Shown here piece by piece: positions 3,205 through 63,715 of a stretch of DNA of 64,000 nt. Location of the stretch: the IMG/VR virus record IMGVR_UViG_3300048091_000427; one strand, given 5' to 3'. The DNA comes from a virus. A program made the translations under genes and the position numbers. Each line of letters begins with the position of its first letter. Position 1 is the stretch's first letter. The notes beneath the pieces are model-generated. The model worked only from the letters and a program-made list of their open reading frames with translations. It did not search any database and was not told the origin of the DNA.

Positions 3205-5007
3205 GTGGCCTCCACCCTCGAAAAGCTGATCAAAGAACAAGTCGACGCCGACAACTTGCCAATGGTCGAGGCTCTGTTGAACTCGATTGTTCCGTTATTA
3301 CCTGAGAAAGAACGGGAAGTACTGGCTGACAGCCAGATGTACGAGGTTTTACTGGAAAGGAAGCCAGCCATCGTCAATCTGTTTTCGCAGCATTTCTCCA
3401 TCACCGATGCAATGGCCGCTGGTTATCTTCTGGATCGCAGTCTCTTCGTGCACAAAGATCGTGACGCATTGCCAATCGCGCTGGACGCGTTGCAAGAAAG
3501 CTTTGGCAATGTGCTGATATCAGCCATTTACCGGGGTGACCTGGCGATGGTGCGAACGCTTCAGGCGAAGTGGCCTGATCGACACATCGAATTGAGTTAC
3601 GACGGTACGAAAGGACACTTGCTGGCAGATGGTCAAAAGGTAAAGCATGAATTTGAAGCCATGCAAAACATGGATGGCGTCCCGGTGTTCCGCGAGCTTA
3701 TGGAAACCTTGCTAAAGATCGTGCAGATAAACGGGATAGATCAGGAGCAATTTCTTTACGACTTTTGTGACAGCGTCAATTTGGATGAGGCCGATGATCT
3801 GACTGAAATTGTTCCTTTTGCCGGTCAGTATCCGTCGATAGCCGCAGGCCAGGTCGAACATCCAGAGCTTATGCTGGCGTTCGCTGAAGCCCAGGAAACA
3901 GTGTTGTTGAAGGCTATGCACAGCCGATTGTTTTGCTGGGTCAAGACCGAGGACGTCGCCGACTTGCCGTTAGGCGTGGCGTATTCCCCAGTGATGAAGG
4001 CCTCGTGCTACGGAGAGCCCTTCGACATCGGGATTCTCTCGACCCCTGCTGCATTTACCCAGCCCTTGCAGTTCACGAAAACGAATGAAGACCGAAAACC
4101 CGAGCCGATCATGGATCAATGGCCTGATATCGAGTTGGGCATCGAGGTAGGTGGGTTGGAACCGTCCAATGCGGTGATTTATGACGACAAGATCCGCCAA
4201 AAAACCCTGCTCGACAGCCATTTCCTAGGCTTGAATCACCGATCAGGGTACACCCTGATGTCGATGGACATCGAGGTATTGAAATCACTTGATATCGGCA
4301 AGGTAGATCCAGAAGCGCTTGTTAAGGCGCGGGAATACGCACAAGGCTTTTACTGCTCGCAACTTCTAAGCCCAAGGTTCCACTCGGGTATGAGCAAAAC
4401 CGGTCGGTTCCGGGAGGGCTGCAAGGAAATGAAGCTGTACAACTTCTTCGATTTTTCGGCTAAGAGTCAGGACAAAGACGCCATTTTTGATAGCTTCAGT
4501 CCGGTTTTTTGGTACAACATTTTCCATGGCTTTTCGGCAGGACTGGGTGCGGAAGGGATTCTAGAGGCGCGTGATCGTTTTGCTTGGACAAACGCGGACA
4601 CTCGTAGAGGCTTCAGCCTCGATGCAGGGAAGATTCACAAACTGTTCGATGCTGGTTATGTGTTTGCGGAATACGGTCGTGGAGTAAAGACGTCATACGG
4701 GGTGTCGTCACCAAGTGAGTGCGAAGTGCTAAACCAGGAAGTCATCTCAATGGGTGGCTGGCCAAGCACCGATCCTCGACCCAATGATGTTGAAGAAGCT
4801 GTAAAAATGGGTATCCGCAAGAAGGATCGTTTGTATGAGATCTACATTCGTACTCATGGGCCAGAGGCGGCTATCGAAGCTAGCAAAACCAGGCCTCAGT
4901 ATGAGTACATCCTGAAGATTTTCACCCAGGATGAAATAAGGCCATACGCCCACAAGCTCCCGATGAAGCAACTCGGCGACGTTTTCTCGCGAGATATGGG
5001 TCTTTAA
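3205..5007 (+). CDS. hypothetical protein (600 aa) ending FSRDMGL; member of C-terminal FSxDLGL family
   Basis: GTG start with GAAGGAAAA RBS; no known domain recognised; extreme C-terminus ...DVFSRDMGL. Confidence 0.55.
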   Translation: MASTLEKLIKEQVDADNLPMVEALLNSIVPLLPEKEREVLADSQMYEVLLERKPAIVNLFSQHFSITDAMAAGYLLDRSLFVHKDRDALPIALDALQESFGNVLISAIYRGDLAMVRTLQAKWPDRHIELSYDGTKGHLLADGQKVKHEFEAMQNMDGVPVFRELMETLLKIVQINGIDQEQFLYDFCDSVNLDEADDLTEIVPFAGQYPSIAAGQVEHPELMLAFAEAQETVLLKAMHSRLFCWVKTEDVADLPLGVAYSPVMKASCYGEPFDIGILSTPAAFTQPLQFTKTNEDRKPEPIMDQWPDIELGIEVGGLEPSNAVIYDDKIRQKTLLDSHFLGLNHRSGYTLMSMDIEVLKSLDIGKVDPEALVKAREYAQGFYCSQLLSPRFHSGMSKTGRFREGCKEMKLYNFFDFSAKSQDKDAIFDSFSPVFWYNIFHGFSAGLGAEGILEARDRFAWTNADTRRGFSLDAGKIHKLFDAGYVFAEYGRGVKTSYGVSSPSECEVLNQEVISMGGWPSTDPRPNDVEEAVKMGIRKKDRLYEIYIRTHGPEAAIEASKTRPQYEYILKIFTQDEIRPYAHKLPMKQLGDVFSRDMGL

Positions 5008-7612: not shown

Positions 7613-9085
7613 TCACAAGCCAAGGTCGATAGAGAAAACGACACCCCTGAGTATCAGGGGCAATGTAGCGATTTGTGCCGGCGACAAGCTGCAGATAGAG
7701 GCCAGTCGCTCGGTGGGTTTTTTATTGATCAAGGTCGGGAGAATCCGGTCGATCAGCGTCGGGTATTGCGCAAGAGCGGCTTTTGCCCGGTCAGCGTTGG
7801 CATTGCCACCGTCGTCGAGGAAAGTCATAACGTTTTTGAAACAGTTGTCTTCACTCATCAAGTCGATGGTCACAGTGCCCTGCATCGCATGATGATAGAA
7901 ATCTATGCTGGCCAGTTCATTGAGCACGGAGGAGGCTGCCTTGTAATCAGGAACTTTCTTTGACCATACGGTTGTGCGGCTACCGAAACGTTGCACATTC
8001 AGCGGATCGAGCAGCGCTGGGTAGGCATTGATCAGCGTTTTGGTGACGGCTTTCTGTACATCGATACCAAAGCGTCGACTTACAAAACCATCGAACAGCC
8101 CAGCAAAGCTGCTCTCTTCCTTGTTCCAGTGCGCCTGGTACTCAAGGATCGGAGGGCCCAGGAGCTCTTTGGCCTCAAAGTGGAACCCCGGCCAGCAGTC
8201 AGGGTAATGCACCAGCACATGGCCGATGAAGTTTCGAATTTGTAGGGCGTGGATCTTGGCGTCAAGGTTCGGGAACAAGACGGGGAGGATCACGGCCAGG
8301 CGCCGCTCCAGTTCGAGGGTGGTCTGCACCACATCACCACCCGCCAGTGTCCAGAAATAGCTGGCATTGACCAGGGACATTACGAAGTCGTGCTCGAAGT
8401 CGCGAGAAACACTTCGATCACGACTCTTGATCAGCGCTTTGAAAGTCATCACGGTTTTGGCGCCGGCTACCAGTGTGGCCGCCGACGGTAGTCCATTCAG
8501 AGCGAATGTCTCAGCACATTCCCTATCCAGCCCTTCACGGGTAGTGGACAACAGATCCCCCAGGCAATCATGAACTCCCTGCGTGTAGGTCAGGCTGCGA
8601 AGAACATGGAGGTGTCTCTCATGCTCGAAACTGAATTTGGTGGAGTCGGGGAGGTTGTCCAGTCGCTTGACGGCGTGACGATGCAACTCAATTGCGCACG
8701 GCTGGAGGATACTGACGATCTTGCACCCAGGATGCAGCATGAGTACGTGAGCCAAATCCATTTCCAGGATTGTCGGCAACAACTGTACGGTGCCTTCGAG
8801 ATAGTGACGGTCATGGACGTGCGCGGACGGATCAAAGCCTGACCTCACCAAGGCCAGGGCAAACAGGCCAAAGCCGAGCCGAGGCTGTAGTTTTTCGTGG
8901 AAGTCGGCTAGCGCCTGCTGAAGTTTGGAATACTTATTGAACGGGGCAGCATTGATGCGTCGATAGTCTTCGAGCGAAAAGTCGTATTTCTCGAAAAACT
9001 TCGACACGTGTTTGGCCAACCCCATGTCAAAAGACTTGGGGTCAAGGTGTTCAAACGGCCAATAAACAGGGTAGTTGGAACCCAT
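7613..9085 (-). CDS. hypothetical protein ending FSIDLGL; FSxDLGL family
   Basis: Start set at ATG 9085 (AGGAGG 9 nt upstream); C-terminus ...RGVVFSIDLGL. Confidence 0.5.
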   Translation of the reverse strand: MGSNYPVYWPFEHLDPKSFDMGLAKHVSKFFEKYDFSLEDYRRINAAPFNKYSKLQQALADFHEKLQPRLGFGLFALALVRSGFDPSAHVHDRHYLEGTVQLLPTILEMDLAHVLMLHPGCKIVSILQPCAIELHRHAVKRLDNLPDSTKFSFEHERHLHVLRSLTYTQGVHDCLGDLLSTTREGLDRECAETFALNGLPSAATLVAGAKTVMTFKALIKSRDRSVSRDFEHDFVMSLVNASYFWTLAGGDVVQTTLELERRLAVILPVLFPNLDAKIHALQIRNFIGHVLVHYPDCWPGFHFEAKELLGPPILEYQAHWNKEESSFAGLFDGFVSRRFGIDVQKAVTKTLINAYPALLDPLNVQRFGSRTTVWSKKVPDYKAASSVLNELASIDFYHHAMQGTVTIDLMSEDNCFKNVMTFLDDGGNANADRAKAALAQYPTLIDRILPTLINKKPTERLASICSLSPAQIATLPLILRGVVFSIDLGL

Positions 9086-9149
9086 CCTGAGCATCCTCCT
9101 GGTTGGTGGGGTTGACGCTAAAAGGGGCCAAGGGCCCCTTAAGTGCGGA

Positions 9150-10073
9150 TCATCGATCCCCGAGGAACTCTCTGACCGTGGGGCCGACTTCTTCGTCTGC
9201 CAGGATTTCGTCGAGCAGATCCTCGGGAATCTCACGGTCTTCATGCAGGATCAGCGGGAACTGCTTGAGCGCCACCAGAAAGGGTTCCTTCTCGGTCATC
9301 TCGTTATCGAAGGGGATACTCGGATCAATTTTGATCATCAACGACAGCAGTTCCGGGGCTGTGTCCCAGGACAGGTTCGGGTGAAGCGGCAGGGCGTCTT
9401 CGAACATCGCTCGCTCGCCACAGGAATCGAATAGGTCGCCACGCTGGCCGACCTTTGTAGGCAGTGCGCCAACCAGCGGGCCATAGCCGGTGTTGAACAC
9501 GTATACATCACCATCCGCCAACAGGCTGCGGTAAAGGCCATCACCACGACCGTCGAAGACATTGTCCGCACCAGTGATCACGATGACATCTTCAATGCAG
9601 CGCGCTTTGTGCACGGTCAAGCCGTCGCAGGCCATCACCTGGGTTTCAAGCAGGCATTCGTGCAGATCGAGCATCTTCAGGAATTTCTTGGAAGCATTGA
9701 AGCGGGTGGCCCGATGGGGAATCAAAGCCTGTTCCAGCTCGTGCACGGAGCCGTAGACAAAAATGTCACGTTGCTCCAGCGGCAGGCGTTGCTTGACGCC
9801 ATGGAATTCAGCCAGGAGGTTGCCGACCCAGTTGTTACCCTGGGCAGAGTTTTTAAGTTCTTCGATCAGAACTTTAGGGTTGCGATGCAGCCGGGTCATC
9901 AGCCACTTGGTGTAGATGCAGTCAGGCGTCGGGTCAAAGCTGGAGACGTACTGGATCACACTGAGGTCGTCGCCAAAGGACGCAATTGCGTCTGGAAGGC
10001 GGCCCTTCATTGCAGTCAGACGTTTGAGGGAACGGTCGAAAACCAGCTTATCTACAAGGGCAAGATCCAGCAT
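9150..10073 (-). CDS. hypothetical protein (307 aa)
   Basis: Long ORF in minus-strand gene block, no recognised motif. Confidence 0.45.
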   Translation of the reverse strand: MLDLALVDKLVFDRSLKRLTAMKGRLPDAIASFGDDLSVIQYVSSFDPTPDCIYTKWLMTRLHRNPKVLIEELKNSAQGNNWVGNLLAEFHGVKQRLPLEQRDIFVYGSVHELEQALIPHRATRFNASKKFLKMLDLHECLLETQVMACDGLTVHKARCIEDVIVITGADNVFDGRGDGLYRSLLADGDVYVFNTGYGPLVGALPTKVGQRGDLFDSCGERAMFEDALPLHPNLSWDTAPELLSLMIKIDPSIPFDNEMTEKEPFLVALKQFPLILHEDREIPEDLLDEILADEEVGPTVREFLGDR

Positions 10074-19406: not shown

Positions 19407-20555
19407 ATGTCTTGGAACATTACCCACGATCCCCTTTATCATGTCGAACTGGATTGCCAGTTTACGGAAAGGATGAAAGGCCTTCGGTTTCGACGTGAGC
19501 AGCTTGAAATGCTCACGCGCAGCACTGATATCGAGAGTGGGTTTGCCAAGCAGGCACCCATCTGGCTGTCAGAAGGAAAGTCACTCGACGTGGTAGAGGC
19601 GTTCCTCCAGGGCCTGGCAGAAGCGGGGCGGAATCTGGATCATCACGCCTGTTTCAGCACCTGGGCCGAACTGGTACATGCCGATCCGATGCGATTTTTC
19701 GAGAACCTGAATTTTGCCAATTATCCGTTGGACTTGGCCAAAACGCCGAACCCCTTGTTCAGCAAGGACGACAGCTTTGCAACACTGAACGCTCTTCTAG
19801 CCCTTGATCCTGTTCGTTGCCTGCAGATTCCAGGCTTGTTGTCTGGCGCCTGGAAAGCTGGCGCGATGAACCCAGAAACCCGCGACCTGGCTTTGATTGG
19901 CATTTTTTCAGCCTTCACCCGTTACACTCGCTATCAAGAGAAGCACCGACATCGGGACAACTATGAAATCCCGTTGGAAACACATGCCAAGAATGTGTTC
20001 AGTCAACTTGGAAAAGTGATTGATCTGAATTTCAGCGGTTTCCTTGAGCAGTTGCCGGACAGTCCGCAGGAAATGACTCCTGTCTTACATCGCTACTACG
20101 GTAAGTTAGCTGGGGAGATGAAGAATGCTGAACATCTGCTGCCACCCCTGCCTATACCGCGTCAAATGGACTCTAACGGTCACCCGTATGCCTTGCTATG
20201 CCTAGGACTTAAAGCCAAGCTGGTGAGTACGCCTGGGCATATCAAATATCTTGACCGCGTGCGAAGCAAAAATGAGAAAAGGCGATTCTCACCCAATTGG
20301 GAGCAGGACGTCTTCTCGCGGGTAATTCAGAACGATTACAGCGATTTGAAGCAGATACGCGCTGCCGTGCGCTCGTACTCGCTGGAAGCACATCATATTG
20401 AAATGCTTGAAGAGCGCGGTCTGGTTAAACAATACCTAAAAGGCCTGCCGGCAGAAGAACGTGAATTCCTTATTGCCAAGGATGTCGTACCGGTTCGATT
20501 AATTGTCAAAGTAAAGGAACTGGGCAATAAATTCGGTCAAGACTTGGGTTTGTAG
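19407..20555 (+). CDS. hypothetical protein ending GQDLGL; FSxDLGL family
   Basis: 382-aa ORF; C-terminus ...NKFGQDLGL. Confidence 0.5.
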   Translation: MSWNITHDPLYHVELDCQFTERMKGLRFRREQLEMLTRSTDIESGFAKQAPIWLSEGKSLDVVEAFLQGLAEAGRNLDHHACFSTWAELVHADPMRFFENLNFANYPLDLAKTPNPLFSKDDSFATLNALLALDPVRCLQIPGLLSGAWKAGAMNPETRDLALIGIFSAFTRYTRYQEKHRHRDNYEIPLETHAKNVFSQLGKVIDLNFSGFLEQLPDSPQEMTPVLHRYYGKLAGEMKNAEHLLPPLPIPRQMDSNGHPYALLCLGLKAKLVSTPGHIKYLDRVRSKNEKRRFSPNWEQDVFSRVIQNDYSDLKQIRAAVRSYSLEAHHIEMLEERGLVKQYLKGLPAEEREFLIAKDVVPVRLIVKVKELGNKFGQDLGL

Positions 20556-20613: not shown

Positions 20614-21348
20614 ATGCTCATCGACCCAAAACCTCTGTTGGCGTTCAGTGATTTGGATAAGCGCGAGCAATCAGTGTTCATGCATCGGTTTATTTCAACT
20701 CTGACCGCTGAGCATGCCTACCAGGCGGTGCTGTTGACCTGCGCTCAAAACGGCGCCTGGGCCTTCATGAGCCGGTTTCTGAAGTTACCGCATGCTCGTG
20801 ATGGCTTGTGGGAGATCATTGACACCCTGCAAAGCTACGCCTACAACGCGCAAACCATTCCCCAGTTGATGGCAGCTTTGCCAAAAAAGTTTCGGCACAA
20901 TGAAGGCATGCGGGCTCTGGTGTACCCTTTTGAAATTAAAAACTGGGAACTGGCCGAGGTAGCTTTTGAGCATGGTGCGGCGCCGGGTGAACAACTGTTT
21001 TGCAAGGTCTGCCACGACTATACGTTTGAGCCGAATGACTTCTCCAAGCAGTTCATTTCTCGTGCGATCAAGACGGGTAAGGTTAACTGGAAGTCTATGT
21101 TGGCTTTCAATGACTATGCCGACGGTTTTGATCTAATCAGCAGGGCAGCCCAGAACGACACCCGAAGCCTGTACGTCGTGGCGTCTGCTGTCATGTCCAA
21201 TGGGGAAAAGCGCCGGCTGCTTCATGCTGTGACGGAAAAGGCCACCTTGAATCATTACTTGCAACACATGGAGTTTCCAGAGAACTGGCGCACTTATTTG
21301 AATTTGCCTATGAGGGCACTGATCTTTTCAGAAGATCTAGGGGTTTGA
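20614..21348 (+). CDS. hypothetical protein ending FSEDLGV; FSxDLGL family
   Basis: 244-aa ORF; C-terminus ...LIFSEDLGV. Confidence 0.5.
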   Translation: MLIDPKPLLAFSDLDKREQSVFMHRFISTLTAEHAYQAVLLTCAQNGAWAFMSRFLKLPHARDGLWEIIDTLQSYAYNAQTIPQLMAALPKKFRHNEGMRALVYPFEIKNWELAEVAFEHGAAPGEQLFCKVCHDYTFEPNDFSKQFISRAIKTGKVNWKSMLAFNDYADGFDLISRAAQNDTRSLYVVASAVMSNGEKRRLLHAVTEKATLNHYLQHMEFPENWRTYLNLPMRALIFSEDLGV

Positions 21349-25905: not shown

Positions 25906-26299
25906 GGGGCCGATTAGGATTCGACGCCGGTAACAAAACTTTAGGTGCGTGCCGAGTTGGTAACAGAACTCGTAAATCCACTGTTGCAACTTTCTATAGT
26001 TGCCAATGACAATGCCTTCGAGGGCGCTCGTCTCGCTGCCTAACCGCAGCTGACACGCCCTTCTGGTTACTTCGGTACCAGCGATCACTAGGGGATGCCT
26101 GTAAACCCGAAGTGATTGTCATGCAGAACAGGATCGCCACCCGAGTACGTTGCGGACAACGGGGCTAAAACTTACGTAACTCGTCCAAAGCACCCTGCCA
26201 ATCGGGCGGCTGCGGATTAACTCAGTAGATATGGCTACGCATGTAGTACCGACAGCGGAGTACTGGCGGACGGGGGTTCAAATCCCCCCGGCTCCACCA
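25906..26299 (+). ncRNA. ssrA: tmRNA (transfer-messenger RNA, SsrA)
   Basis: 5' GGGGCCGATTAGGATTCGACG acceptor/TLD, tag reading frame GCC AAT GAC AAT GCC TTC GAG GGC GCT CGT CTC GCT GCC TAA (ANDNAFEGARLAA), 3' GGACGGGGGTTCAAATCCCCCCGGCTCCACCA. Confidence 0.9.
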
Positions 26300-42418: not shown

Positions 42419-42419
42419 C

Positions 42420-43073
42420 TCAATTCCCCTCTTTAGCGAATTTTGTCAATTCATCTTGATTGTGAGCGATCACCGCACCGGCAGCGACCATTTCGAGCAA
42501 TGCTTCTAGTGCGCCTTCGGCACTGATTGCTCGGCAGGCCGGCAAGTGGAGCACGACGATGAAGTCTGCGGCCAGCAGTTGCAGGACGGTGGTTTTGACG
42601 CAGTAGTCCAGAGCCAGACCGCCCACCAGGACTTTTTCGATGCCATTGCAGCGCAGGACTTCGATGGCGCCGGTGGTCAGCTTGTTGTGCAGATCGTGGT
42701 AGCAGGCGCCGTAGGGGTGCAGGTCGGTCGATACACCCTTGTAGACCATGTAGCCGTAGTCGGTCTCGGCGGGCAGCGTGTCGAGGAGCTCGTAGCCCAA
42801 GGTACCGGGTACGCAGTGCACAGGCCAGAACAGGTCAGCATTTGGCAGGCCGGTAGGCTGGGCGATCTTTTCGCCGGTCTCGTCGATCCATGGGGCTTGC
42901 GGAGAGTGAGCGTCTTTGCTGCCGACGCGAAAACCAGCCAGGGAAGCCATGAAGTTCAGCTCAGGGGTAATCTGGTCACCGCCAACGACAGGCAGTTCAT
43001 TTGGGCAGATCGGGGTGAACCCCTTTTGGGCGTCTACGTCAAAGCTTGCGATTTTGTTCTTGGGGAAGCTCAT
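42420..43073 (-). CDS. pncA: nicotinamidase / isochorismatase-family hydrolase
   Basis: Isochorismatase fold with D...K...C triad region; position in pncA-pncB-nadE operon. Confidence 0.7.
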   Translation of the reverse strand: MSFPKNKIASFDVDAQKGFTPICPNELPVVGGDQITPELNFMASLAGFRVGSKDAHSPQAPWIDETGEKIAQPTGLPNADLFWPVHCVPGTLGYELLDTLPAETDYGYMVYKGVSTDLHPYGACYHDLHNKLTTGAIEVLRCNGIEKVLVGGLALDYCVKTTVLQLLAADFIVVLHLPACRAISAEGALEALLEMVAAGAVIAHNQDELTKFAKEGN

Positions 43074-43309
43074 GTGAGGTGCTCCTTGTTTGCCGATGAT
43101 TAGATATTACGCCACACGTCATAAGTCGTCAACAACCCGAAATGAAAATTTCTAAAAATCTTCCATCAATCGAAAAACAGTCGCTCATTTGCCTATAAAT
43201 AGTGGTACTGGCTGAAATTATTGCTGAGCCATAATTTCATATAATTGACCTGTTGCGATTGACTAGATACGACGTGACACGTATTATGTTGAAAAAGAAG
43301 GAGCAAAAC

Positions 43310-43882
43310 ATGAGCAAGATCCCATTGGCCGTATACGGCGGCGCATTCAACCCACCTCACCCAGGGCACGCCCAAGTGATGAAGGGTCTGCTTGAGAAGG
43401 CTGAAAAAGTGCTGGTGGTACCCTCTTATGCTCACCCGTTTGGCAAGCACATGGTGGCTTTCGAAACGCGGGTAGGGTGGCTGACCAAGATCGTGACCCA
43501 GCTGCAAGATGAGCGCATTCAGGTAGATGCCTGTGAGGAAGATCTAGCCGCCATCAAGACCCCGATCTTCAGCATCGATCTGTTGCGGTTCATCGCCGAC
43601 CGGTTCGGCCTCGATAGCAAGTCGGTGGCGTTGGTGATGGGCGCGGACAACGCAAAGGTTTTCCCAACCTTCTTTGGCTACCAGGCCATCGTGGATGAGT
43701 TCTCGGTGATCACCATGCCTGAGGTGTACCAGATCCACAGCACGATGCTGCGCAGTGCCCTGGCTGATACGGGTGAAATTCCGCAGGACTGGGTTGCCCC
43801 CGGCCTGACGCAACATGATTACCAGGTGTACAGCCAAGACCCGGCTGGCCAAGCCAACTTGAATTCACGCAAAATCGCCTGA
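43310..43882 (+). CDS. nicotinamide/nicotinate-nucleotide adenylyltransferase-like cytidylyltransferase
   Basis: GGAFNPPHPGH (H/T)xGH nucleotidyltransferase motif. Confidence 0.65.
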   Translation: MSKIPLAVYGGAFNPPHPGHAQVMKGLLEKAEKVLVVPSYAHPFGKHMVAFETRVGWLTKIVTQLQDERIQVDACEEDLAAIKTPIFSIDLLRFIADRFGLDSKSVALVMGADNAKVFPTFFGYQAIVDEFSVITMPEVYQIHSTMLRSALADTGEIPQDWVAPGLTQHDYQVYSQDPAGQANLNSRKIA

Positions 43883-43914
43883 ATCACCAATTTATCTTTC
43901 AAGGGGACTCCAGG

Positions 43915-44625
43915 ATGACCACTCAACAAAGACCTTACCTCCACTCCGTCGACATCGGTGTGCTGCGCTTCAACCAGGCGAGTGAGGTGATCGAGGTCAT
44001 GCTGCAGAAGCGCCTCGACCCTGATCAACCTTACTTTGGTCAGTGGGCGCTGCCCGGCATCGTGATCAATGGTGACATGATCGACCAGGACATCAACGCC
44101 GCACTGGCCCGCCTACTGGCGTCGCCCAAGGTCGGCATCCCGGTAAAGTACACCGAACAAGTGGGAACCGAAGGCAACGGCGTGCGTGATCCGCGCTGCT
44201 GGTCGAGCACCACCGTCTACCTTGGTCTCGTGGATGACGCCATTGCCCTGGAAGGGGACAAGCAGTGGGTGCCGCTGGCCGGCGTTCTGTCCTCCGAGAT
44301 CCTGCTCGCATTTGACCACAACCTCTTGGCTGGCATGATTTATGAGCGGCTTGCGTCGAAGTGCCTCTACAGCAGCCTGGGCCTGCAACTGCTGCCACAG
44401 GAATTTACCATCACCGGCGCGATCAGCGTGTTCGCCTCGATCCTCAATTATCCGGTGGCCCGGACGAGCATGGTGCAACGCATCAACAAGATGACGGAAG
44501 CCGGCCTGGTGCTGAAGACTGACCGCAAAAACCAACCGCTGATGGGCCGGGCCCAAACCATCTACGAAAACCTTCAACCAGAAAAAGTCTTCTTTTTCGA
44601 CCGTACTCTCTCTGCCTCTGAATAA
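43915..44625 (+). CDS. nrtR: NrtR-like Nudix-related transcriptional regulator
   Basis: Degenerate Nudix N-terminal domain plus C-terminal wHTH; genomic context next to NAD salvage genes. Confidence 0.6.
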   Translation: MTTQQRPYLHSVDIGVLRFNQASEVIEVMLQKRLDPDQPYFGQWALPGIVINGDMIDQDINAALARLLASPKVGIPVKYTEQVGTEGNGVRDPRCWSSTTVYLGLVDDAIALEGDKQWVPLAGVLSSEILLAFDHNLLAGMIYERLASKCLYSSLGLQLLPQEFTITGAISVFASILNYPVARTSMVQRINKMTEAGLVLKTDRKNQPLMGRAQTIYENLQPEKVFFFDRTLSASE

Positions 44626-44635
44626 GGAAATCGAC

Positions 44636-45127
44636 ATGAACGCACCCGTCAAACCGTTTGAACTCCTGCATGAAACCCCGTATTTCAACGTGATCAAGCG
44701 TGGGAAGTATTACCTCGTGAGTGAAGAGTACGAGGTTAACGCTGCGGTGATCCTCGCCAGAACCACTGATGGCAAGTACCTGATGGTCAACCACTACCGT
44801 GGCGCTATTGATCAGGATTCCCTGGAACTGCCGCGTGGTGGCCGCAAGCCGAACGAAACTCTGCTGGAAACTGCCCAGCGTGAGTTGAAGGAGGAGACTG
44901 GTTACGTGTCTGAGGCCTGGTCGTTCCTCGGGAAGATCCACACCAACACCTCGATCATCGTCAGTGCGGTCGAAATCTACCTGGCGCTCGACGCGGTACA
45001 AGTGACCACCGTCACTGACGGAGAAACCAAAGGTAACCTGCTGTACACCGAGGACGAATTTAACGTCCTGATTCGCACCGGCAAGATCACTGACGCGCAC
45101 ACCCTGTCGGCCTGGGCAATGCGATAA
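44636..45127 (+). CDS. Nudix hydrolase (ADP-ribose pyrophosphatase-like)
   Basis: Nudix box GGRKPNETLLETAQRELKEETGY. Confidence 0.7.
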   Translation: MNAPVKPFELLHETPYFNVIKRGKYYLVSEEYEVNAAVILARTTDGKYLMVNHYRGAIDQDSLELPRGGRKPNETLLETAQRELKEETGYVSEAWSFLGKIHTNTSIIVSAVEIYLALDAVQVTTVTDGETKGNLLYTEDEFNVLIRTGKITDAHTLSAWAMR

Positions 45128-45608: not shown

Positions 45609-46064
45609 CTACAATCCAAGGTCGTGGCTGAAGACGTCTTTTCGAAACTCCTCGAACTGCGGTGATTGTAGGAGGAGGTTCTTGATGGCAACGCTGGGCT
45701 GGGTGAAGCCAACTATCAGGAACTCAGCCTTCGCGGCCCTGCGCAGTTCGTCTGGATAAGCCACCGTTGCCCCGTTCAGCGCATCCTCAACCAGTTTGAT
45801 TGCTCGAGCGTTAAAGTCATCGGCCAGTGGCGTTGTTGGGTCTTTTGCACTTCTCGCTAAGGCTTTACCTATTCCGCCCCTGACATTGGCGAAGAGCTGA
45901 TAGCGCGTCATGTCAGCCATCCCGAGGTTAAACACTGCGGGATCGTATAAAGGGCCCTGGCCTGTGCCATGCAGGGCCCGTTCAACAAGCGCGTGCCACT
46001 TGTTCGCAGGCCCCTGGCCTGTGCCGTGAAGAATCTTTTCAATAAACTCGTACGACTTGTTCAA
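45609..46064 (-). CDS. hypothetical protein ending FSHDLGL with internal HGTGQGP repeat; FSxDLGL family
   Basis: 151-aa ORF; two copies of ..HGTGQGP..; C-terminus DVFSHDLGL. Confidence 0.5.
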   Translation of the reverse strand: MNKSYEFIEKILHGTGQGPANKWHALVERALHGTGQGPLYDPAVFNLGMADMTRYQLFANVRGGIGKALARSAKDPTTPLADDFNARAIKLVEDALNGATVAYPDELRRAAKAEFLIVGFTQPSVAIKNLLLQSPQFEEFRKDVFSHDLGL

Positions 46065-50873: not shown

Positions 50874-51269
50874 GAAACCTCCTGTCCTCGTGGTTAATCA
50901 TGCAGCAATAGCACTGTATATTCATCCACGAAAAGGTGCAACCCTGAATGACCGGTCATTGAAGTGCTAACAAGCACTCGTAAATGTCAAGAAACAGGCA
51001 TAGAATAATCACCAATAATTGACGGAATGAATGTAAATTGGGAGCCGGGGATGGAAAACGTTCCTCGCAGTTCTGAGTACGACCGCCTTGAGGTCGATCT
51101 TCGGCTTATTGACGCCAATTTGAGTGACGTCATGCGTCACCTGTTTTACAGCGAGCAGGCTTCTTCTGAAGAGGGTAGACTCGCCGGCGTGGCTGACGCA
51201 AAGCGCCAGCTTAACAAGGCAATGGACAGGATTGGGCAAGTCAGGCGCGGTGTAAAGGCCAAGGCCTGA

Positions 51270-52715
51270 TCAAAGGCCAAGGTCTTTACTGAAAGAGTCC
51301 GCCCGGAATCTCATCGACCGGGTGAGTTTGCACTTATTCAGAAAGGCGTCTTTAAGATCCAAATCAAGTGCCTTCCTAAATCCCTCACCATCGACTGATT
51401 TGAACAATATGTTGATGGTCTTGTCGTGAGCTCCTGCAATTTCGCCCGGCTTGTCCTTGGTAACCAGTTGTTTTGCGTGCTCCAGCAAAATTTCACGGGC
51501 GCCTTCAAAACTATTGGCCGCAAGTTTAATTGACGCGTCGAAATTCAGTGAAGCTACGCATTTTTTAAGCTCTGTGTTGAAGCCATCATGATCCGTAATG
51601 GTTGGGGTGATTCCCCGCTGGTAGTATCTGATGAGGTTCATCATGTGTTTGGGGTCACTGGTCAGTATGTCTACCCCTGCGGTCAGAGCCACCTCAAACA
51701 AACGCTCCTTCAAGTGGGGTTCATCTTTTCGTGGACTCGATTGAGCGATGGCAGTAAGCAAGCGTAGTGGGGTGAAGTCCGTACCACGTCCCATGATGAT
51801 TTCTGTCGGTGTTCTTTCGAGTGGCGTCATCTCATGCAAGCTCGAGCAAATTGCACGCAGGTTGGTCGTATCTCGAAGGTACGTGATCTCTTCTGGTACT
51901 CCATTTTTGAGCGCCCGTAAAAATCGGCAAAAGACCAGGGCCGGATCAAAATCACGAACGCCTCTTTTTGCTTCGGCGTTCATGGCGTAGTCGAGGATCG
52001 GATTATGGAGCCAGGGCTTTTTCTCGAGACGTGAGATAATCGCGAGACACTTGGTGATTGACTGATCGTAGGGCAATTCAGAGTCCACATCGCGTGAAAG
52101 CGAAACGCCGCCACTTTCAAGAAAGTGATCCATGGCTTCCACCATTTTATCCTTGTTGCTATGGCCCACGAACTGGTTCAAGTACATGTCCTTGAACATC
52201 ATTGCTACGTACTGGGGTTCGGAGATATAGCGGTGACCGCCCATGCTCCTGAGAACATTCATCGTTTCGACAAAATCCTCTTTACTGACCAGGGGCTCCT
52301 TATCGGATTTTGGGAATTTCCGACCAAATCCGAGAATGGCCGATCCCAATGGCTTGAGGGGATTTGGAAAGCTTACCTTACTGTAAAGGATGGTCTGCGG
52401 GCTGGAATCGAACAGGGCAGGGTCGTCAAGGTAGCAATCGTAGCGTTCGAAAATCGCCAGGGGCACGCCATGATCGCGGAAAATGGCTAAGGCCTCATGA
52501 TTACCCTCCATGGCGCATTCGCAGATGTGCTGTTCCACGTCCCTGCGCAAGGATTGTGGGGTCATGTATCTCGGACTTGCACGGTCAGGGGACATAGGCG
52601 CCGGCAAGTAGCCTGCAGCTTCTGGCATCTTCTCCAGGTGCTCGCAGTAGATCCTGGCGTTGCTCACGGCTCTCTCGGACGCTGTAAGCCATGTACGGCG
52701 GTGATCGAATGTCAT
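51270..52715 (-). CDS. hypothetical protein (481 aa) ending SFSKDLGL; FSxDLGL family, tandem paralogue B
   Basis: Shares EKMPEAxGYLPAP, HEALxIxRxHGVxLxIFERYD, KxGVRDFDPxxVF, TNLRAI, C-terminal RADSFSKDLGL with upstream paralogue. Confidence 0.55.
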   Translation of the reverse strand: MTFDHRRTWLTASERAVSNARIYCEHLEKMPEAAGYLPAPMSPDRASPRYMTPQSLRRDVEQHICECAMEGNHEALAIFRDHGVPLAIFERYDCYLDDPALFDSSPQTILYSKVSFPNPLKPLGSAILGFGRKFPKSDKEPLVSKEDFVETMNVLRSMGGHRYISEPQYVAMMFKDMYLNQFVGHSNKDKMVEAMDHFLESGGVSLSRDVDSELPYDQSITKCLAIISRLEKKPWLHNPILDYAMNAEAKRGVRDFDPALVFCRFLRALKNGVPEEITYLRDTTNLRAICSSLHEMTPLERTPTEIIMGRGTDFTPLRLLTAIAQSSPRKDEPHLKERLFEVALTAGVDILTSDPKHMMNLIRYYQRGITPTITDHDGFNTELKKCVASLNFDASIKLAANSFEGAREILLEHAKQLVTKDKPGEIAGAHDKTINILFKSVDGEGFRKALDLDLKDAFLNKCKLTRSMRFRADSFSKDLGL

Positions 52716-52791
52716 GGAAGCTCTCGGGTAGATTTGAATGGTTGATCAGTCGGGCGATGCAGGGGAGGGCTCAGTACTTGAGCCCTGTGCC

Positions 52792-54237
52792 TCAAAGGCC
52801 GAGGTCTTTTGAAAAGGACTCAGCGCGAAATTGTAGCGACTGGGTGGTCTTACCTTTGTAGGCAAAGGCGTCACCCATGCTCAGGCCAAGCTTTATCCGG
52901 TAGCTTTCGCTGGTAGGGTCGGTAAACAGCCGCTGGATGGTCGCTTCATCGGCGCCGGCGATGGCATTCACCTTGTCGTCGGTAAGCATCTGCTTTATCC
53001 GTGCCAAGGCAGCTGGATTGGCCTTGAGCACATGGCCTTTGCACAGCTTCATCGCGGCAGTGAGGTTGAGCACCTCAGTGTGCTTCCCGAGTTCATCATT
53101 GAACTCTTCCAACTTATCCAGATCCAGGCAGCCTTTACGTTCGTACTTGGAGATCAAGGTGAAGAGATGGCCTTTGTCATTGATCAACGTGTCCATGCCC
53201 GCTGACATGCAAGCGTTGAACAACGCTGGGATGCGCGCAGGCTCTACTTTGGCAGTCTTTGATTCATCTATCGCACGCAGCAACATCAGCGGAGTGAAGC
53301 GCTTCTGGTTGCCGAGGATGATCGCATTCGGATCTTTGTTGATCGGGTAGAGTTCGTGCATGCGCTGGAAGATGGCCCGAAGGTTGGTGTTCTCCCCCAG
53401 CCAACTCACCACCTTGTCTTGCCCGCGACTCAAGGCATTCATAAACGATTGAAAGACGATGACCGGGTCAAAATCACGCACGCCGGCTTTCACTTCGCTC
53501 TCTAGCGCGAAAGGCAGCATCACGTTCTGGGTTTCTGGGTTGAAATCCATGTTCCGGATCTTTTTGATGATTTTCAGCACCGAGTCATCGAAGCTTAGAT
53601 CGGAGTCATAGTCCCGGCACAGGGAGATACCACCCTCGGCGAGGAATTTATCGCTGGCGTAGCTCAAGCGACGGCTGTTATTGAGGTTCATGAACAGGAA
53701 GCCCATGTCACGAAACATTTTCGAGACGTACTGGGGATCGTTCTTGTAGTGATTTCCACCCATGATCATGAGAACCGACAGGGTCTCGTCGAAGTCGGCC
53801 TCGGTGATGCAGGCAGCTTCATAGAGATCGCTTCTCGAATACCCGGATATTAACGTGCCGACGGCTTCCAGAGGATTCGGAAAAACTGTACCGCGATTCA
53901 AGATATCGCGAGCGTGGGGTGAGTACAGTTCCTGGTTTTCCAAGAAACTGTCATAGCGCTCGAAGATCACGAGGCCTACCCCGTGCTCACGATAGATCTT
54001 CAATGCTTCATGGTTGACGGTTTCAGCGCACCGGGCGATGTTGACTTCAATTGCCCGGCGCAGCGTGGATGGCGTCCAATTATCTTTGCTCTCGCCGCTA
54101 CCATTACTGGGTGCGGGCAGGTAACCGATAGCTTCCGGCATTTTCTCTAGGGCACGGCAGAAACGAGTCGCTAACGTGACGCCCCATGCAACCTGGTCGG
54201 CTCTGCGGCGTTGGTAAGTTGCGTCTAGATCGCTCAT
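52792..54237 (-). CDS. hypothetical protein (481 aa) ending SFSKDLGL; tandem paralogue A
   Basis: See paralogue B; identical length, identical last 8 residues. Confidence 0.55.
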   Translation of the reverse strand: MSDLDATYQRRRADQVAWGVTLATRFCRALEKMPEAIGYLPAPSNGSGESKDNWTPSTLRRAIEVNIARCAETVNHEALKIYREHGVGLVIFERYDSFLENQELYSPHARDILNRGTVFPNPLEAVGTLISGYSRSDLYEAACITEADFDETLSVLMIMGGNHYKNDPQYVSKMFRDMGFLFMNLNNSRRLSYASDKFLAEGGISLCRDYDSDLSFDDSVLKIIKKIRNMDFNPETQNVMLPFALESEVKAGVRDFDPVIVFQSFMNALSRGQDKVVSWLGENTNLRAIFQRMHELYPINKDPNAIILGNQKRFTPLMLLRAIDESKTAKVEPARIPALFNACMSAGMDTLINDKGHLFTLISKYERKGCLDLDKLEEFNDELGKHTEVLNLTAAMKLCKGHVLKANPAALARIKQMLTDDKVNAIAGADEATIQRLFTDPTSESYRIKLGLSMGDAFAYKGKTTQSLQFRAESFSKDLGL

Positions 54238-54307
54238 GGAAAAGCCCCAATGTTTTTTCTCAGTATGGGGCTTGCGCTAACGCGGGCGCAACGCGACGAA
54301 CCGGGAC

Positions 54308-54784
54308 TCAGGCCTCGGGTGTACGGTCGTCTGTGATCAACAGTGGGGGTGCTTCCGGTTCCTCTTTGGGAGCAAAATGGGCCTTGGTCGCCTGATAGGC
54401 TTTCTGCCCGGCAACTCCCAGGCAATACGCGGCGCCAGCGGACACAGAGGCCGTCACGATCAAACCCCCGCCTACAGCCCCTGCCGCAGCGATCCCGAGG
54501 GCGGCCCCGACGGAAGCCCCGCCGATTTCAGCAGTTTTCTCCCCAAGGGTGTCGGCGGCTTGTAGCAGGGTCTTTTCCTTGCGCATGACCGCAATGGACT
54601 CCTTACCGACGGTCAAGGCCGTTTCCACGATCAGCGCAGCAGGCAGGCGCTTGAGCAAACCCGAGGAACTTGCGGTAAGGACACGTGACAAGCCTTTAGA
54701 GGCGCCCATTTCCAGAGCCTTGCCTGCGGCTGCTTTGAGAATCCCCATGAATAACGGCTCCTGATACAGCGACAATAAGCCCAC
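54308..54784 (-). CDS. glycine-zipper membrane protein (Gly/Ala-rich)
   Basis: GAALGIAAAGAVGGG GxxxG repeats; first gene of three-gene minus-strand block. Confidence 0.35.
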   Translation of the reverse strand: MGLLSLYQEPLFMGILKAAAGKALEMGASKGLSRVLTASSSGLLKRLPAALIVETALTVGKESIAVMRKEKTLLQAADTLGEKTAEIGGASVGAALGIAAAGAVGGGLIVTASVSAGAAYCLGVAGQKAYQATKAHFAPKEEPEAPPLLITDDRTPEA

Positions 54785-59562: not shown

Positions 59563-61008
59563 TTATCGAATCAAGGACTGGATAATGTTAAACAGACCCA
59601 GGTTGGATTCGATGGCCAGCTTGGCCGCCACCTTGCCCTTGGCGATGTTTTGACCTTCGTAGTAAACATGAGGGCCGCTCATGTACAGAATGTCCTTCTC
59701 CATGGCCTTGTCGAACCACGACTTTTGATCACCGGTGGTTGGTGCTGCTCCATCGGTCACCGGGGTGATGACTGGGGTGATGACCTCAACCGAAGGCGAC
59801 GTGTCGGAGCTCAACAGGGTACTGATCGGCTGCGCGAAGTACTCGTCATCGTCCAGGGGCTCCCGGTGAGCCGGGCGTTCACCGTCGGCCAGTTCATCGA
59901 ACTCTTCTTCCTCATCTACCTGCGGTTTGATTACAGGGGCAGGGATCTCGGCAGCTGGGCGCAACTTCTCGGCAGCCTCAGCCGGCACCACCTTCGGTTT
60001 GACCGCCTCGATCACACCGTTGTTGCCCAACAGCTTGTCGCGCAGTTGCTTCTCGAGCGCTGCCGCGACCTTCGGGTTATCCGCCAGGTATTTTGCCGAG
60101 TTAGCCTTACCCTGGCCGATTTTGGTGCCGTTGTAGGCGTACCAGGCACCGGATTTTTCGACGAACCCGTGCAGAACACCCTGGTCGATCATCTCGCCGT
60201 GCAGGTAGATACCCTTACCGTAAAGGATCTGGAACTCAGCTTGCTTGAATGGCGAAGCGACCTTGTTCTTCACAACCTTGACGCGGGTTTCGCTGCCGAT
60301 CACTTCTTCGCCATCCTTCACCGAGCCAGTACGGCGGATATCGAGACGAACCGACGCGTAGAACTTCAGCGCGTTACCACCGGTGGTCGTTTCCGGGCTG
60401 CCGAACATCACGCCGATCTTCATGCGGATCTGGTTGATGAAGATTACCAGGCAGTTGGCGTTCTTGATGTTACCGGTGATTTTACGCAACGCCTGGGACA
60501 TTAGACGGGCCTGCAGGCCGACGTGCATGTCACCCATTTCGCCTTCGATCTCAGCCTTTGGCACCAGCGCCGCCACAGAGTCGACAATCAGGACATCGAC
60601 AGCGTTCGAACGCACCAGCATGTCGGTGATTTCCAGCGCTTGCTCACCAGTGTCGGGTTGGGAGACCAGGAGGTTGTCGACGTTTACACCCAGCTTGGCG
60701 GCGTACTCAGGGTCGAGAGCGTGTTCGGCGTCGACGAAAGCACAGGTCGCACCGGCTTTTTGAGCCTGGGCGATCACGGACAGGGTCAGGGTGGTTTTAC
60801 CAGACGATTCCGGGCCGTAAATTTCGATGATGCGACCACGCGGCAGGCCGCCGATGCCCAGTGCCACGTCCAGACCCAGGGAGCCGGTAGAAAAAGAGTC
60901 GATAGGCGCACGCTCGCTATCGCCCATGCGCCTGATAGAGCCATCGCCGAACTGCTTGTTGATCTGCGACAACGCTGTTTGGAGCGCCTTATTCTTTTCA
61001 ATAGACAT
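59563..61008 (-). CDS. recA: recombinase RecA with non-canonical ~130-aa C-terminal extension
   Basis: Complete RecA core (GPESSGKTT Walker A, L1/L2 loops, acidic tail [13 protein letters not shown]) starting MSIEKNK with GGAGA RBS; ORF continues about 100 aa beyond usual stop. Confidence 0.9.
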
Positions 61009-61049
61009 ATGAATCTCCGATGAATCTGGTGTAGGTGTGAATGTAATTA

Positions 61050-61064
61050 TTGTATTCAATTGAC
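61050..61064. promoter_or_regulatory. TTGACAGGCTGTCAA palindrome in recA promoter region
   Basis: 7-1-7 inverted repeat containing -35-like TTGACA; no canonical CTGT-N8-ACAG LexA box found. Confidence 0.35.
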
Positions 61065-61109
61065 AGGCTGTCAACAAGATTGATGGTAAATTGATATGAT
61101 ATTTTTACA

Positions 61110-62422: not shown

Positions 62423-63715
62423 TTACAAATTCAGAGCTTGACCGAACAACACGCCCTTGATTTTTAATTTCCTGAACAATTTGATCAACTCGACGGTGTT
62501 ATATACCCTATTCAGAGCTTGAGCATTACGAACAGATTGCTGGATTTGTGGAACAACTTCATTGGCTTGGAACTGGGAAAGGTAGGCCTTAGCAAATAAT
62601 TCGCATATGCTACATTTGTCTTTGACAAGTTGGCGTACTGCTTCAGTGCCAGTTTCAGGAAACCGGGGGTCAGGATTGATTTGCTGTAGAAGTAAAATGC
62701 TTTGATACAGATGCAGAGTGGACACCCAGGGATGGCTGTCGAGTGTGTTAAGCAATGCGTGAAAACAAATAAGTCTGCTTTGCTCGGCACAGGGGATGAA
62801 CTGTATAGCCCTGCCATCGCGTTTGATGGCCTCTAATCGAATCGTTTCAGTTTGTTCCTGTGGGGGTATCTGACCGAGCATCATCGGGTTTCTGGAAATG
62901 GCAAGAAGACGGAGCTTATCCGTTTGGAAGGAGGACGGAATGTCGTCAAGACAGGCCCCGTGGGGGCATGAACCGATTGCACCCTCGCACAACCTGCCCG
63001 TTAGCAGATGCGGGGGCACGAAGACGATGGCAGCTCCGTTGGAGCGGACGGCAGCGTTAGCCATCTCGGACGTGACGATATTTACAGGGCAGAAACGCAA
63101 CAGGAGGCCATCTTTCCCAAGGGCGGTCAGCCAAATGTCCCTCTTGAGGTGCTGAGCAGGAATTTGATGGATCAGTTGTGCATCCAGGCTTACCGCTTTT
63201 TTGTATAAGGATTTATTCAAAAGATGGTCAGGAAGAAAGAACAACATGGTCGGTTCTTTTTCCATAGCAAGCAGACACAACTCAATTTTTTTCAGAGCGT
63301 CAGGAACATAATAAAAATCTTTTGGGTTGAGTTTTACAGCCACCCAGCACACGCGCTCTGTTCGCTCAAACAAAGGAATGTCCTGGAAGTTACAAAGGAA
63401 ACCTTTCAGCATGGAAATCCAGCGATCTTCTACGTTTTTTGATGCTTTTGCCTGCGACTCAAACAAATCAGGTTCAATCAACGATTTGATATCAATTCGC
63501 AGAGCAACACATAAGTATTTATAAAAGTTAGTAAGCGATGAAGCGCTCATATTAGACAATGGTTCCCCGTGGGAAGAGCGCAGCATGCTCCATACCTCGG
63601 GCGCTATGTTGTTTTGCAAGTGTGCAATCGCAGTGAAATCGAAATAGCCATCTACTATGGATTGTTTGGCCAAGGTTTCTCGTCTTGTTTTCAATCTCAC
63701 AATATTATTCCCCAT
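62423..63715 (-). CDS. DUF4116-repeat protein (low GC)
   Basis: Repeated (W/I)xxALxxDGxxLxFVP units; AT-rich codon usage. Confidence 0.5.
   Translation of the reverse strand: MGNNIVRLKTRRETLAKQSIVDGYFDFTAIAHLQNNIAPEVWSMLRSSHGEPLSNMSASSLTNFYKYLCVALRIDIKSLIEPDLFESQAKASKNVEDRWISMLKGFLCNFQDIPLFERTERVCWVAVKLNPKDFYYVPDALKKIELCLLAMEKEPTMLFFLPDHLLNKSLYKKAVSLDAQLIHQIPAQHLKRDIWLTALGKDGLLLRFCPVNIVTSEMANAAVRSNGAAIVFVPPHLLTGRLCEGAIGSCPHGACLDDIPSSFQTDKLRLLAISRNPMMLGQIPPQEQTETIRLEAIKRDGRAIQFIPCAEQSRLICFHALLNTLDSHPWVSTLHLYQSILLLQQINPDPRFPETGTEAVRQLVKDKCSICELFAKAYLSQFQANEVVPQIQQSVRNAQALNRVYNTVELIKLFRKLKIKGVLFGQALNL

Follow-up and report, generated by a model that had tools for sequence, protein, structure and literature searches.

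The locus studied here raises the question of why two neighbouring paralogous genes end in exactly the same eight residues. The genes lie on the minus strand of a 64,000-nucleotide stretch of the IMG/VR virus record IMGVR_UViG_3300048091_000427, which was analysed whole and is called the window below; with a gene for a glycine-zipper (Gly-zipper) membrane protein they form a three-gene block, and an earlier note made from the letters of this DNA had taken the two paralogues for a tail-tagged effector pair diversifying under host or competitor selection. The block itself is genetically ordinary, and the identical tails are what matters: they belong to a near-invariant C-terminal tag, apparently undescribed, carried by more than 100 orphan proteins per megaplasmid. 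The genes of the block are:

52792..54237, minus strand: paralogue A, exactly 481 aa, a predicted all-alpha orphan protein and the slower-evolving copy.
51270..52715, minus strand: paralogue B, exactly 481 aa, the more divergent copy and an allelic mosaic.
54308..54748, minus strand: small membrane protein with a Gly/Ala zipper, 146 aa when started at the ATG at 54748; its gene opens the block.

SFSKDLGL forms the last eight residues of both A and B, and an open reading frame (ORF) check bore out this ending and the common length as first noticed. The window was scanned for ORFs ending in the motif [DE][LMIV]G[LMIV], and seven tail-bearing ORFs were found against 0.11 expected (Poisson P = 3e-11), with the following tails:

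52795..52836, minus strand: tail peptide of A, last 14 codons, …LQFRAESFSKDLGL.
51273..51314, minus strand: tail peptide of B, last 14 codons, …MRFRADSFSKDLGL.
3205..5007, plus strand: 600-aa ORF, tail …GDVFSRDMGL.
7613..9244, minus strand: 543-aa ORF, tail …GVVFSIDLGL.
19407..20555, plus strand: 382-aa ORF, tail …GNKFGQDLGL; its own orphan family of 11 clusters.
20614..21348, plus strand: 244-aa ORF, tail …ALIFSEDLGV.
45609..46064, minus strand: 151-aa ORF, tail …KDVFSHDLGL; tail kept by orthologues in all related loci.

The five other bearers in the window have no Pfam domain, and resemble A and B only over their last 9-16 residues. Within the A/B family, members less than 20% identical still end in [DE]-[LM]-G-[LM], and the last four columns of the family alignment are its third most conserved four-column window of 480. 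The intuition of the earlier note that the tail is a tag was well placed, given this retention at less than 20% identity and the occurrence of the tail on more than 100 unrelated megaplasmid proteins.

A is matched at 99% on the plasmid of Pseudomonas serbica IT-P366 (1.06 Mb) and at 43% on pPLMAXa (PLMAX type; 949 kb). Over the 20 kb compared, the window and the P. serbica plasmid share ~97% identity, and the 382-aa protein of the window has a 100% identical counterpart in P. serbica. Further relatives were found on P. silesiensis pPL1 (1.17 Mb; ~80% nucleotide (nt) identity), while pBASL58 (904 kb) and the FeN3W plasmid (910 kb) hold distant ones, about 20-30% identical where they align. Since its relatives lie on these ~1-Mb plasmids, the locus is assigned to the pMPPla107/pBASL58 megaplasmid family or to a sister lineage. 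The likeness to that family comprises a size of ~1 Mb, housekeeping paralogues, transfer-messenger RNA (tmRNA) and tRNAs, a Dot/Icm-like type IV secretion system (T4SS) and mostly hypothetical genes; pBASL58 carries both an A/B family orthologue and the tail, and pMPPla107 carries the tail. For pMPPla107, PMC3136466 gives 776 of 1,080 genes as hypothetical and reports a complete Dot/Icm-like system.

Tails were counted on megaplasmid sequence, covering pBASL58 completely (assembled whole, 904,163 bp; 4,076 stop-to-stop ORFs of at least 80 aa), 50 kb of pMPPla107, 100 kb of FeN3W and 100 kb of a Vibrio megaplasmid. On pBASL58, 135 of the 4,076 ORFs end in the motif, 83 of them in exactly DLGL, corresponding to ~14% of the 959 features in its annotation; the five control motifs, made by permutation or substitution, gave 0-5 matches each, and DLGL occurs internally 17 times per 295,652 residues, against the 83 terminal occurrences. 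By position, the pBASL58 tails have Leu at -7 in 131/135, D or E at -4 in all, L at -3 in 117, G at -2 in all, and L at -1 in 123. A relative-entropy profile of 133 pBASL58 tails showed enrichment of E/D at -14, -10 and -6, with information at background beyond -15. Acidic residues make up 20% and basic residues 7% of the last 20 positions, compared with 12.5% and 10% of the bodies. Written as a pattern, the tail is an acidic ~14-residue peptide, [ED]-x3-[E/D/G]-x2-[L/F]-[S/G/E]-x-D-L-G-L-COOH. Its codons include all six for Leu, all four for Gly, both for Asp and all three stops, and the 40 nt downstream are unconserved; this identifies the tail as a signal at the peptide level and rules out a repeat in the DNA, and a terminator or recombination site was rejected on the same grounds. 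A literature search on a DLGL C-terminal motif in Pseudomonas plasmids returned nothing, and searching PMC3136466 and PMC6482414 by term gave no mention of a C-terminal motif, a tail-tagged proteome or candidate substrates.

A tail shared so widely could be an inherited structural part acting in cis, such that the bearers would form one hyper-divergent helical-repeat superfamily spread by tandem duplication, with the tail as a capping or dimerisation helix. The pBASL58 bearers are 77-641 aa long (median 396 aa), uniformly Leu-rich and Gly-poor, acidic, and soluble-like, with transmembrane-like segments in 8%, against 26% of untagged long ORFs, and many are arranged in same-strand tandem arrays of ~400-aa genes. 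Both bearers that were modelled with AlphaFold2 are all-alpha and solenoid-like with only generic repeat-protein matches, and in the A model the tail is part of a confident terminal helix (predicted local distance difference test, pLDDT, 85-91); like the tandem arrays and the uniform Leu-rich, Gly-poor composition, this speaks for the explanation. Against it, the tail-less bodies fall into 104 BLAST components with at most 6 members, and an iterative profile search (jackhmmer) started from A found only its one pBASL58 orthologue among the bearers, linking the A family to no other tagged family; a single detectable superfamily is thus unsupported by both methods. A structural element also need not end at the carboxyl terminus, as DLGL does (83 terminal against 17 internal occurrences), and in the second model, that of the 382-aa bearer (all-alpha, pLDDT 65), the tail is not packed (pLDDT 42-53). 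No fold match was obtained for this second model, a search that carries little weight because the model is only moderately confident. Proteins with TerD and DUF6685 domains bear the tail as well, and the concerted changes at -7, -6 and -1 between lineages, described below, are hard to explain without a shared partner. On this evidence a structural role in cis was judged improbable.

The Pfam scan left 121 of 123 bearers without a domain; the two positive ones are the TerD-family protein and the DUF6685 protein, encoded at pBASL58 740462-741535 and 617026-617997, and they may give a lead to the activities present in the tagged set. Two of the pBASL58 arrays, at 256753-269247 and 394857-415505 (L020, L023), consist of 9-17 consecutive hypothetical genes of ~400 aa on the same strand, most of which bear the DLGL tail and are mostly unrelated by BLAST.

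The D-L-G-L core is common to all lineages, and the flavour of its flanks is lineage-specific:

Window and pPL1: F at -7 in 25/25 and S at -6 in 19/25, "…G-x-x-F-S-x-D-L-G-L".
pBASL58: L at -7 in 131/135.
pMPPla107: "R-D-x-x-[F/L/I]-G-x-D-L-G-L", from the 20 bearers of a single 50-kb sample.
PLMAX type: tails ending …LGV.

FeN3W yielded 2 tails in 100 kb, too few for defining a lineage motif. Orthologues switch flavour with the plasmid that carries them: the F of A and B in the window is L in the pBASL58 orthologue and in other distant members, the 382-aa family has …FSQDLGL in one form and …FRVDLGV in another, and in the PLMAX type the 382-aa and 151-aa families both change from …DLGL to …DLGV. 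That unrelated families change in concert points to a single reader that they share and that the plasmid encodes. SFSKDLGL is the local instance of a plasmid-wide C-terminal peptide, and its reading in trans by one plasmid-encoded receptor is a step that we consider likely since the tail is selected as protein, sits exactly at the C-terminus and changes with lineage across unrelated families; the pattern is observed directly, and its function is inferred.

Several kinds of reader could account for such a pattern. One would be a proteolytic system, with the tail as a C-terminal degron or quality-control tag (recognised by ClpXP with a plasmid SspB, or by a tail-specific system) that holds the large orphan proteome at low or conditional levels and thereby limits what the plasmid costs its carrier. 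The motif needs a free C-terminus and ends in non-polar residues, a character shared by ClpX and tail-specific-protease degrons (ssrA-type LAA-COOH tags), and the plasmids encode tmRNA, SmpB and an SspB homologue. DLGL, with its obligatory Gly at -2 and Asp at -4, is however unlike known ClpX C-motifs, and the sequences bound by SspB are of another kind. The annotation of pBASL58 includes no Clp or Lon protease, so that lineage co-variation under this explanation would need a plasmid reader such as SspB. Megaplasmid carriage is costly, as stated in PMC6482414, which favours a cost-lowering device; keeping 14% of genes as constitutive protease substrates seems wasteful, and we think a degron unlikely.

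The same arguments for recognition in trans would also serve another partner: an enzyme that modifies C-termini, such as an ATP-grasp ligase (by analogy with RimK or tubulin-tyrosine ligase), a scaffold, or a compartment or assembly that recruits cargo by a C-terminal peptide in the manner of encapsulins. Several ATP-grasp genes are present on pBASL58, one of them near the A/B family orthologue both there and in FeN3W, and encapsulin cargo peptides have similar cores (DLGI, SLGIGSL). The ATP-grasp genes are only loosely adjacent, and the annotation of pBASL58 contains no encapsulin or HK97-like shell, no PDZ protein and no dedicated modifying system, so a partner of this kind was given a low probability. 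As an observation in its own right, pBASL58 has at least six ATP-grasp genes, and on pBASL58 as well as on FeN3W the one in question is found three genes downstream from the family orthologue (L006 9536-10393; L007 9930-10769). Type I secretion protease signals likewise end in acidic and then hydrophobic residues; the Pfam scans of the tagged proteins contained no RTX or transporter domain, with no search aimed at type I secretion.

The candidate reader ranked first is the coupling complex of the plasmid's own type IVB secretion system (T4BSS), in which a DotL/IcmO-type coupling protein (T4CP) and DotM would act as the receptor. pBASL58 encodes a Dot/Icm-type T4BSS with DotA/TraY, IcmT, DotD, DotG, DotH, DotI, a TraI-like protein and a type IVb pilus, together with a DotL/IcmO-type T4CP, and the gene just upstream of the latter encodes a DotM_C protein (E = 2e-33). 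The T4CP is present at full length on pMPPla107 (79%), FeN3W (66%) and pPL1 (64%). In Legionella, DotM binds acidic C-terminal effector tails, and the authors of that work suggest co-evolution of DotM with the tails in each species (PMC5802825). The composition described there for C-terminal signals is found in the megaplasmid tails, which hold 20% D/E against 12.5% in the body and end in hydrophobic residues (A tail, FRAESFSKDLGL); the enriched positions that bear on a T4BSS-type signal are E/D at -14, -10, -6 and -4 and L at -7, -3 and -1. The likeness to the Dot/Icm systems of Legionella and Coxiella, whose Glu-rich E-block tails are bound by DotM, lies in a C-terminal, acidic signal with an essential hydrophobic end, in a large set of unrelated, mostly orphan, often repeat-containing soluble proteins, and in a DotL-type T4CP and a DotM_C protein encoded on the replicon of the bearers. 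In contrast to these intracellular pathogens, the megaplasmid system is that of a self-transmissible plasmid of free-living or plant-associated Pseudomonas. By this analogy the tail may be a T4BSS substrate signal with DotL/DotM as candidate reader, a tentative assignment that we put somewhat short of an even chance. A, B and the other bearers would then be substrates exported into mating recipients or other target cells, where their helical-repeat bodies would serve as protein-binding modules; that the tail directs the export of more than 100 T4BSS substrates, A and B included, into recipient bacteria or eukaryotic hosts is a possibility that we hold to be doubtful.

A number of observations weigh against recognition by the T4BSS. 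Known Dot/Icm signals are degenerate and compositional with no near-invariant tetrapeptide, whereas D-L-G-L is near-invariant in the megaplasmid tail, which also has a fixed hydrophobic residue at -7. IncI-type conjugative T4BSSs are known to move only a few proteins, and to our knowledge more than 100 substrates on a conjugative plasmid would be unprecedented. Pfam and PDB searches showed no homology of the A/B family to an experimentally validated effector, the bearer genes lie away from the T4BSS genes on pBASL58, and the region with par, rep and the T4BSS (0-100 kb) has zero tail-bearing genes. The confident terminal helix formed by the tail in the A model is compatible with an intramolecular role. 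A T4BSS on the window's own plasmid is extrapolated from pPL1, its closest complete relative. Finally, 100 kb sampled from a Vibrio megaplasmid with a 46%-identical T4CP contained no tail and no enriched C-terminal peptide. The ~0.9-Mb megaplasmids of V. parahaemolyticus and V. vulnificus (NZ_CP062152.1, NZ_CP097357.1, NZ_CP015514.1, CP099927.1; sampled stretches L040, L041) hold the closest non-Pseudomonas homologue of the DotL-type T4CP, at 46-47% identity, and share housekeeping-type cargo (Bax inhibitor, metallophosphoesterase, StiP).

For the bodies of A and B, sequence searches gave a narrow family, with 10 clusters in a set of 5.8 billion proteins; an exhaustive profile search through 1.84 billion proteins brought up 14 representatives. 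Neither protein has a Pfam, NCBIfam, PHROG, PADLOC or PDB-sequence match, and 19 family members were also scanned; the housekeeping-enzyme core that had been named as a counter-explanation was therefore not found in any of these collections. The AlphaFold2 model of A is all-alpha with 29 helices (pLDDT 86.2; predicted template modelling score, pTM, 0.79), and its low-confidence residues 42-51 (pLDDT <50), predicted to be non-helical, directly follow the conserved motif PExxGY(L/F)P. A Foldseek search with this model returned generic ARM, HEAT or designed repeats only (E ≥ 0.015), and the sole match of the family profile against the PDB was a designed repeat protein derived from ANK, which aligns to residues ~288-351 (…FTPL…L…aG…; E = 7e-5). 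Because only such matches were obtained, the model is best described as an irregular ankyrin-like alpha-solenoid of weak similarity and was not filed as an ANK-family member; 0/19 family members match Ank-family models at E ≤ 1. An hhalign self-comparison for internal repeats gave the trivial self-match only. One family member has a weak match to DUF4116, a domain also present in a neighbouring protein, and kinship with it was rejected (hhalign probability 0.2%).

A and B are 42% identical end to end (203/482; BLASTP E = 1e-124), so the paralogy proposed in the earlier note stands while its estimate of about a third of shared positions was too low, and the blocks quoted there (EKMPEAxGYLPAP, NHEAL…IFERYD, GVRDFDP, TNLRAI) are all present in the A/B alignment. 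The three genes share one strand; the gaps between them measure 70 and 76 nt and contain no T-rich terminator, and a promoter scan of the block gave 0 promoter-like sites, which is uninformative. From this spacing and from synteny, it is plausible that they form a single operon. Between A and B, at 52760-52786 (minus strand) and directly after the A stop, there is a hairpin with an 8-bp stem, AGGGCTCA-agtac-TGAGCCCT, which has no T-tract and may act in mRNA stability or attenuation within the operon.

The Gly-zipper ORF was called mechanically as 54308..54784 on the minus strand, reaching a GTG at 54784 and giving 158 aa. The ATG at 54748 has AGGAG 10 nt upstream and the 146-aa product is also called on metagenome contigs (e.g. 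L002); going by these sequence features, the ATG is more likely to be the true start than the GTG. The protein is 21% Ala and 12% Gly with an acidic, Pro-rich C-terminus, no DLGL tail, and a hydrophobic small-xxx-small zipper of ~40 residues (residues ~73-115; Kyte-Doolittle peak 1.84 in a 19-residue window at residues 82-100), and its small-xxx-small-xxx-small motifs start at residues 65-87 and 103. No lipobox or signal peptide is evident. It is an orphan with 7 clusters only among the 5.8e9 proteins searched, and no Pfam or NCBIfam family matched at E ≤ 0.1 apart from one spurious TorS fragment. It thus shares with the Gly-zipper/YMGG-type Pfam families and with GxxxG packing motifs a small size, Ala/Gly richness and small-xxx-small spacing in a hydrophobic segment, and differs from the Gly-zipper_* families in having no hidden Markov model match in Pfam or NCBIfam. 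Spacing and synteny link it to A and B, for which, as a guess, it may be a membrane tether or co-factor.

The conserved gene order around the block is MscS-(orf73)-metallophosphoesterase-GlyZip-A-(B)-orf80-orf161-DUF4326-SIMPL, and the block is not a chance feature, because the same arrangement recurs in every related replicon examined. The number of copies in relatives, which the earlier note had proposed to check, varies between one and two. The two-copy form (A and B) is found in the window, P. serbica, pPL1, L008/L009 and L011, and two metagenome contigs that carry an identical A protein group with the window in this form. PLMAX and L010 have one copy that belongs to a third clade with a 25-residue insertion. 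In L013 and L014 only A is kept, followed by a 45-residue C-terminal remnant of B that includes …FRADAFSSDLGL (L013 8213-8374; L014 8217-8378), and B was therefore lost there by deletion. The Gly-zipper gene is always directly upstream of the family gene in window-type and PLMAX-type plasmids and is not beside the distant orthologues on pBASL58 and FeN3W, so that its supposed link to the paralogues holds for the window-type sublineage and fails outside it. The block is part of the syntenic backbone of the megaplasmid family, not a variable island, and its duplication is old.

Selection on A and B was estimated against orthologues as the ratio of nonsynonymous to synonymous substitution rates (dN/dS, Nei-Gojobori), which was 0.105-0.26 for A, ~0.19-0.20 for B, and 0.03-0.36 for neighbour genes. 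A and B are under purifying selection, and gene-level positive selection was rejected (dN/dS 0.1-0.26). The B copies of the window and P. serbica are 77% identical with a synonymous divergence (dS) of 0.78, against 97-100% identity and a dS of ~0.02 for the flanking proteins, and the difference was traced to one feature:

51200..52200, minus strand: recombinant patch, the C-terminal ~2/3 of B and the end of a convergent 80-aa ORF.

In this patch (counterpart region L003 11493-12959) nt identity to the P. serbica plasmid is 60-76%, against at least 97% in most other 200-bp bins of the 20 kb; outside it, the N-terminal third of B is 91-95% identical at the nt level. The C-part of the window's B is 85-87% identical to alleles P0008 and P0009, and that of P. 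serbica 82% to the pPL1 type; neither resembles A (41%), and A-B gene conversion was rejected as the origin of the patch. When plasmids are compared in pairs, B consistently diverges more than A does and is incongruent with its flanks. B is thus an allelic mosaic made by recombination between plasmids, with at least two allele lineages in circulation.

These results also bear on the block as a self-contained module, in which a membrane protein and two diversifying, tail-tagged effector- or toxin-like paralogues would serve competition or defence. The tight three-gene layout, the copy number of 1 or 2 and the allelic mosaicism of B fit such a module. The dN/dS of 0.1-0.2 equals that of the neighbours, however, PADLOC and PHROGs gave no match for the Gly-zipper protein, A or B, with no toxin or immunity domain, the block lies in a syntenic backbone among housekeeping-type genes, the tail is plasmid-wide, and the Gly-zipper partner is absent beside distant orthologues, which together make the module very improbable. 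A diversifying effector pair is likewise unsupported because dN/dS shows purifying selection, and the diversification under host or competitor selection first proposed does not agree with orthologue ratios like those of neighbours, an old duplication and a syntenic backbone; what survives of the unusual dynamics is the swapping of alleles in the C-terminal two-thirds of B and the loss of B in one lineage, and not diversification along the whole gene. It is almost certain that the locus is a conserved three-gene backbone unit with paralogues under purifying selection and a recombining B; it is a probably co-transcribed Gly-zipper, A and B unit of the ~1-Mb pMPPla107-family backbone, in which A and B are ancient tandem paralogues, orphan, soluble and all-alpha, with B swapping alleles between plasmids.

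No secretion, toxin or defence genes were found near the block, and no secretion apparatus within the window. The neighbourhood is of housekeeping type, with genes for NadE, PncB, nicotinamidase-like, NMNAT-like, NrtR, NUDIX, CYTH, SIMPL and DUF4326 proteins, a metallophosphoesterase, MscS, AlkB-like, RecA, Ham1, ExoVII, Bax inhibitor-1 and SPFH proteins. A cluster for nicotinamide adenine dinucleotide (NAD) salvage and regulation at 40293-45127, also kept in related plasmid contigs, comprises NadE, PncB, an isochorismatase/nicotinamidase-like protein, a cytidylyltransferase-like NMNAT, an NrtR-type regulator and a NUDIX protein. The plasmid-borne RecA (59563-61077, minus strand; 504 aa) extends ~150 residues beyond canonical RecA, following the RecA_C domain that ends at residue 349, and related contigs have 507-aa orthologues. 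A DUF4116 repeat protein of 430 aa is encoded at 62423-63715 (minus strand), and FeN3W also has one. The window further carries a tmRNA gene at 25906-26299 (plus strand) with tag peptide ANDNAFEGARLAA, on what is evidently a megaplasmid; with SmpB and an SspB homologue on pBASL58, the plasmid family carries its own trans-translation and tagging components.

The tail is the first organising principle for the uncharacterised genes of these megaplasmids, which add ~1,000 genes per cell, about three quarters of them hypothetical. PMC3136466 found no known effectors on pMPPla107 by homology and, in 2011, called a role of the T4SS beyond conjugation unknown; because the tail is near-invariant, candidates can be listed by a regular expression, which makes that question directly testable. 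If the T4BSS is the reader, a sequence-defined T4BSS signal and a large substrate set would be available in a tractable, non-pathogenic conjugation system, as the first near-invariant, searchable T4BSS signal and the first large T4BSS "effector arsenal" outside intracellular pathogens, with consequences for plasmid establishment, fitness costs and manipulation between bacteria. Should the reader instead be a protease, a modifying enzyme or an assembly, the tail would define a new plasmid-wide proteome-addressing system.

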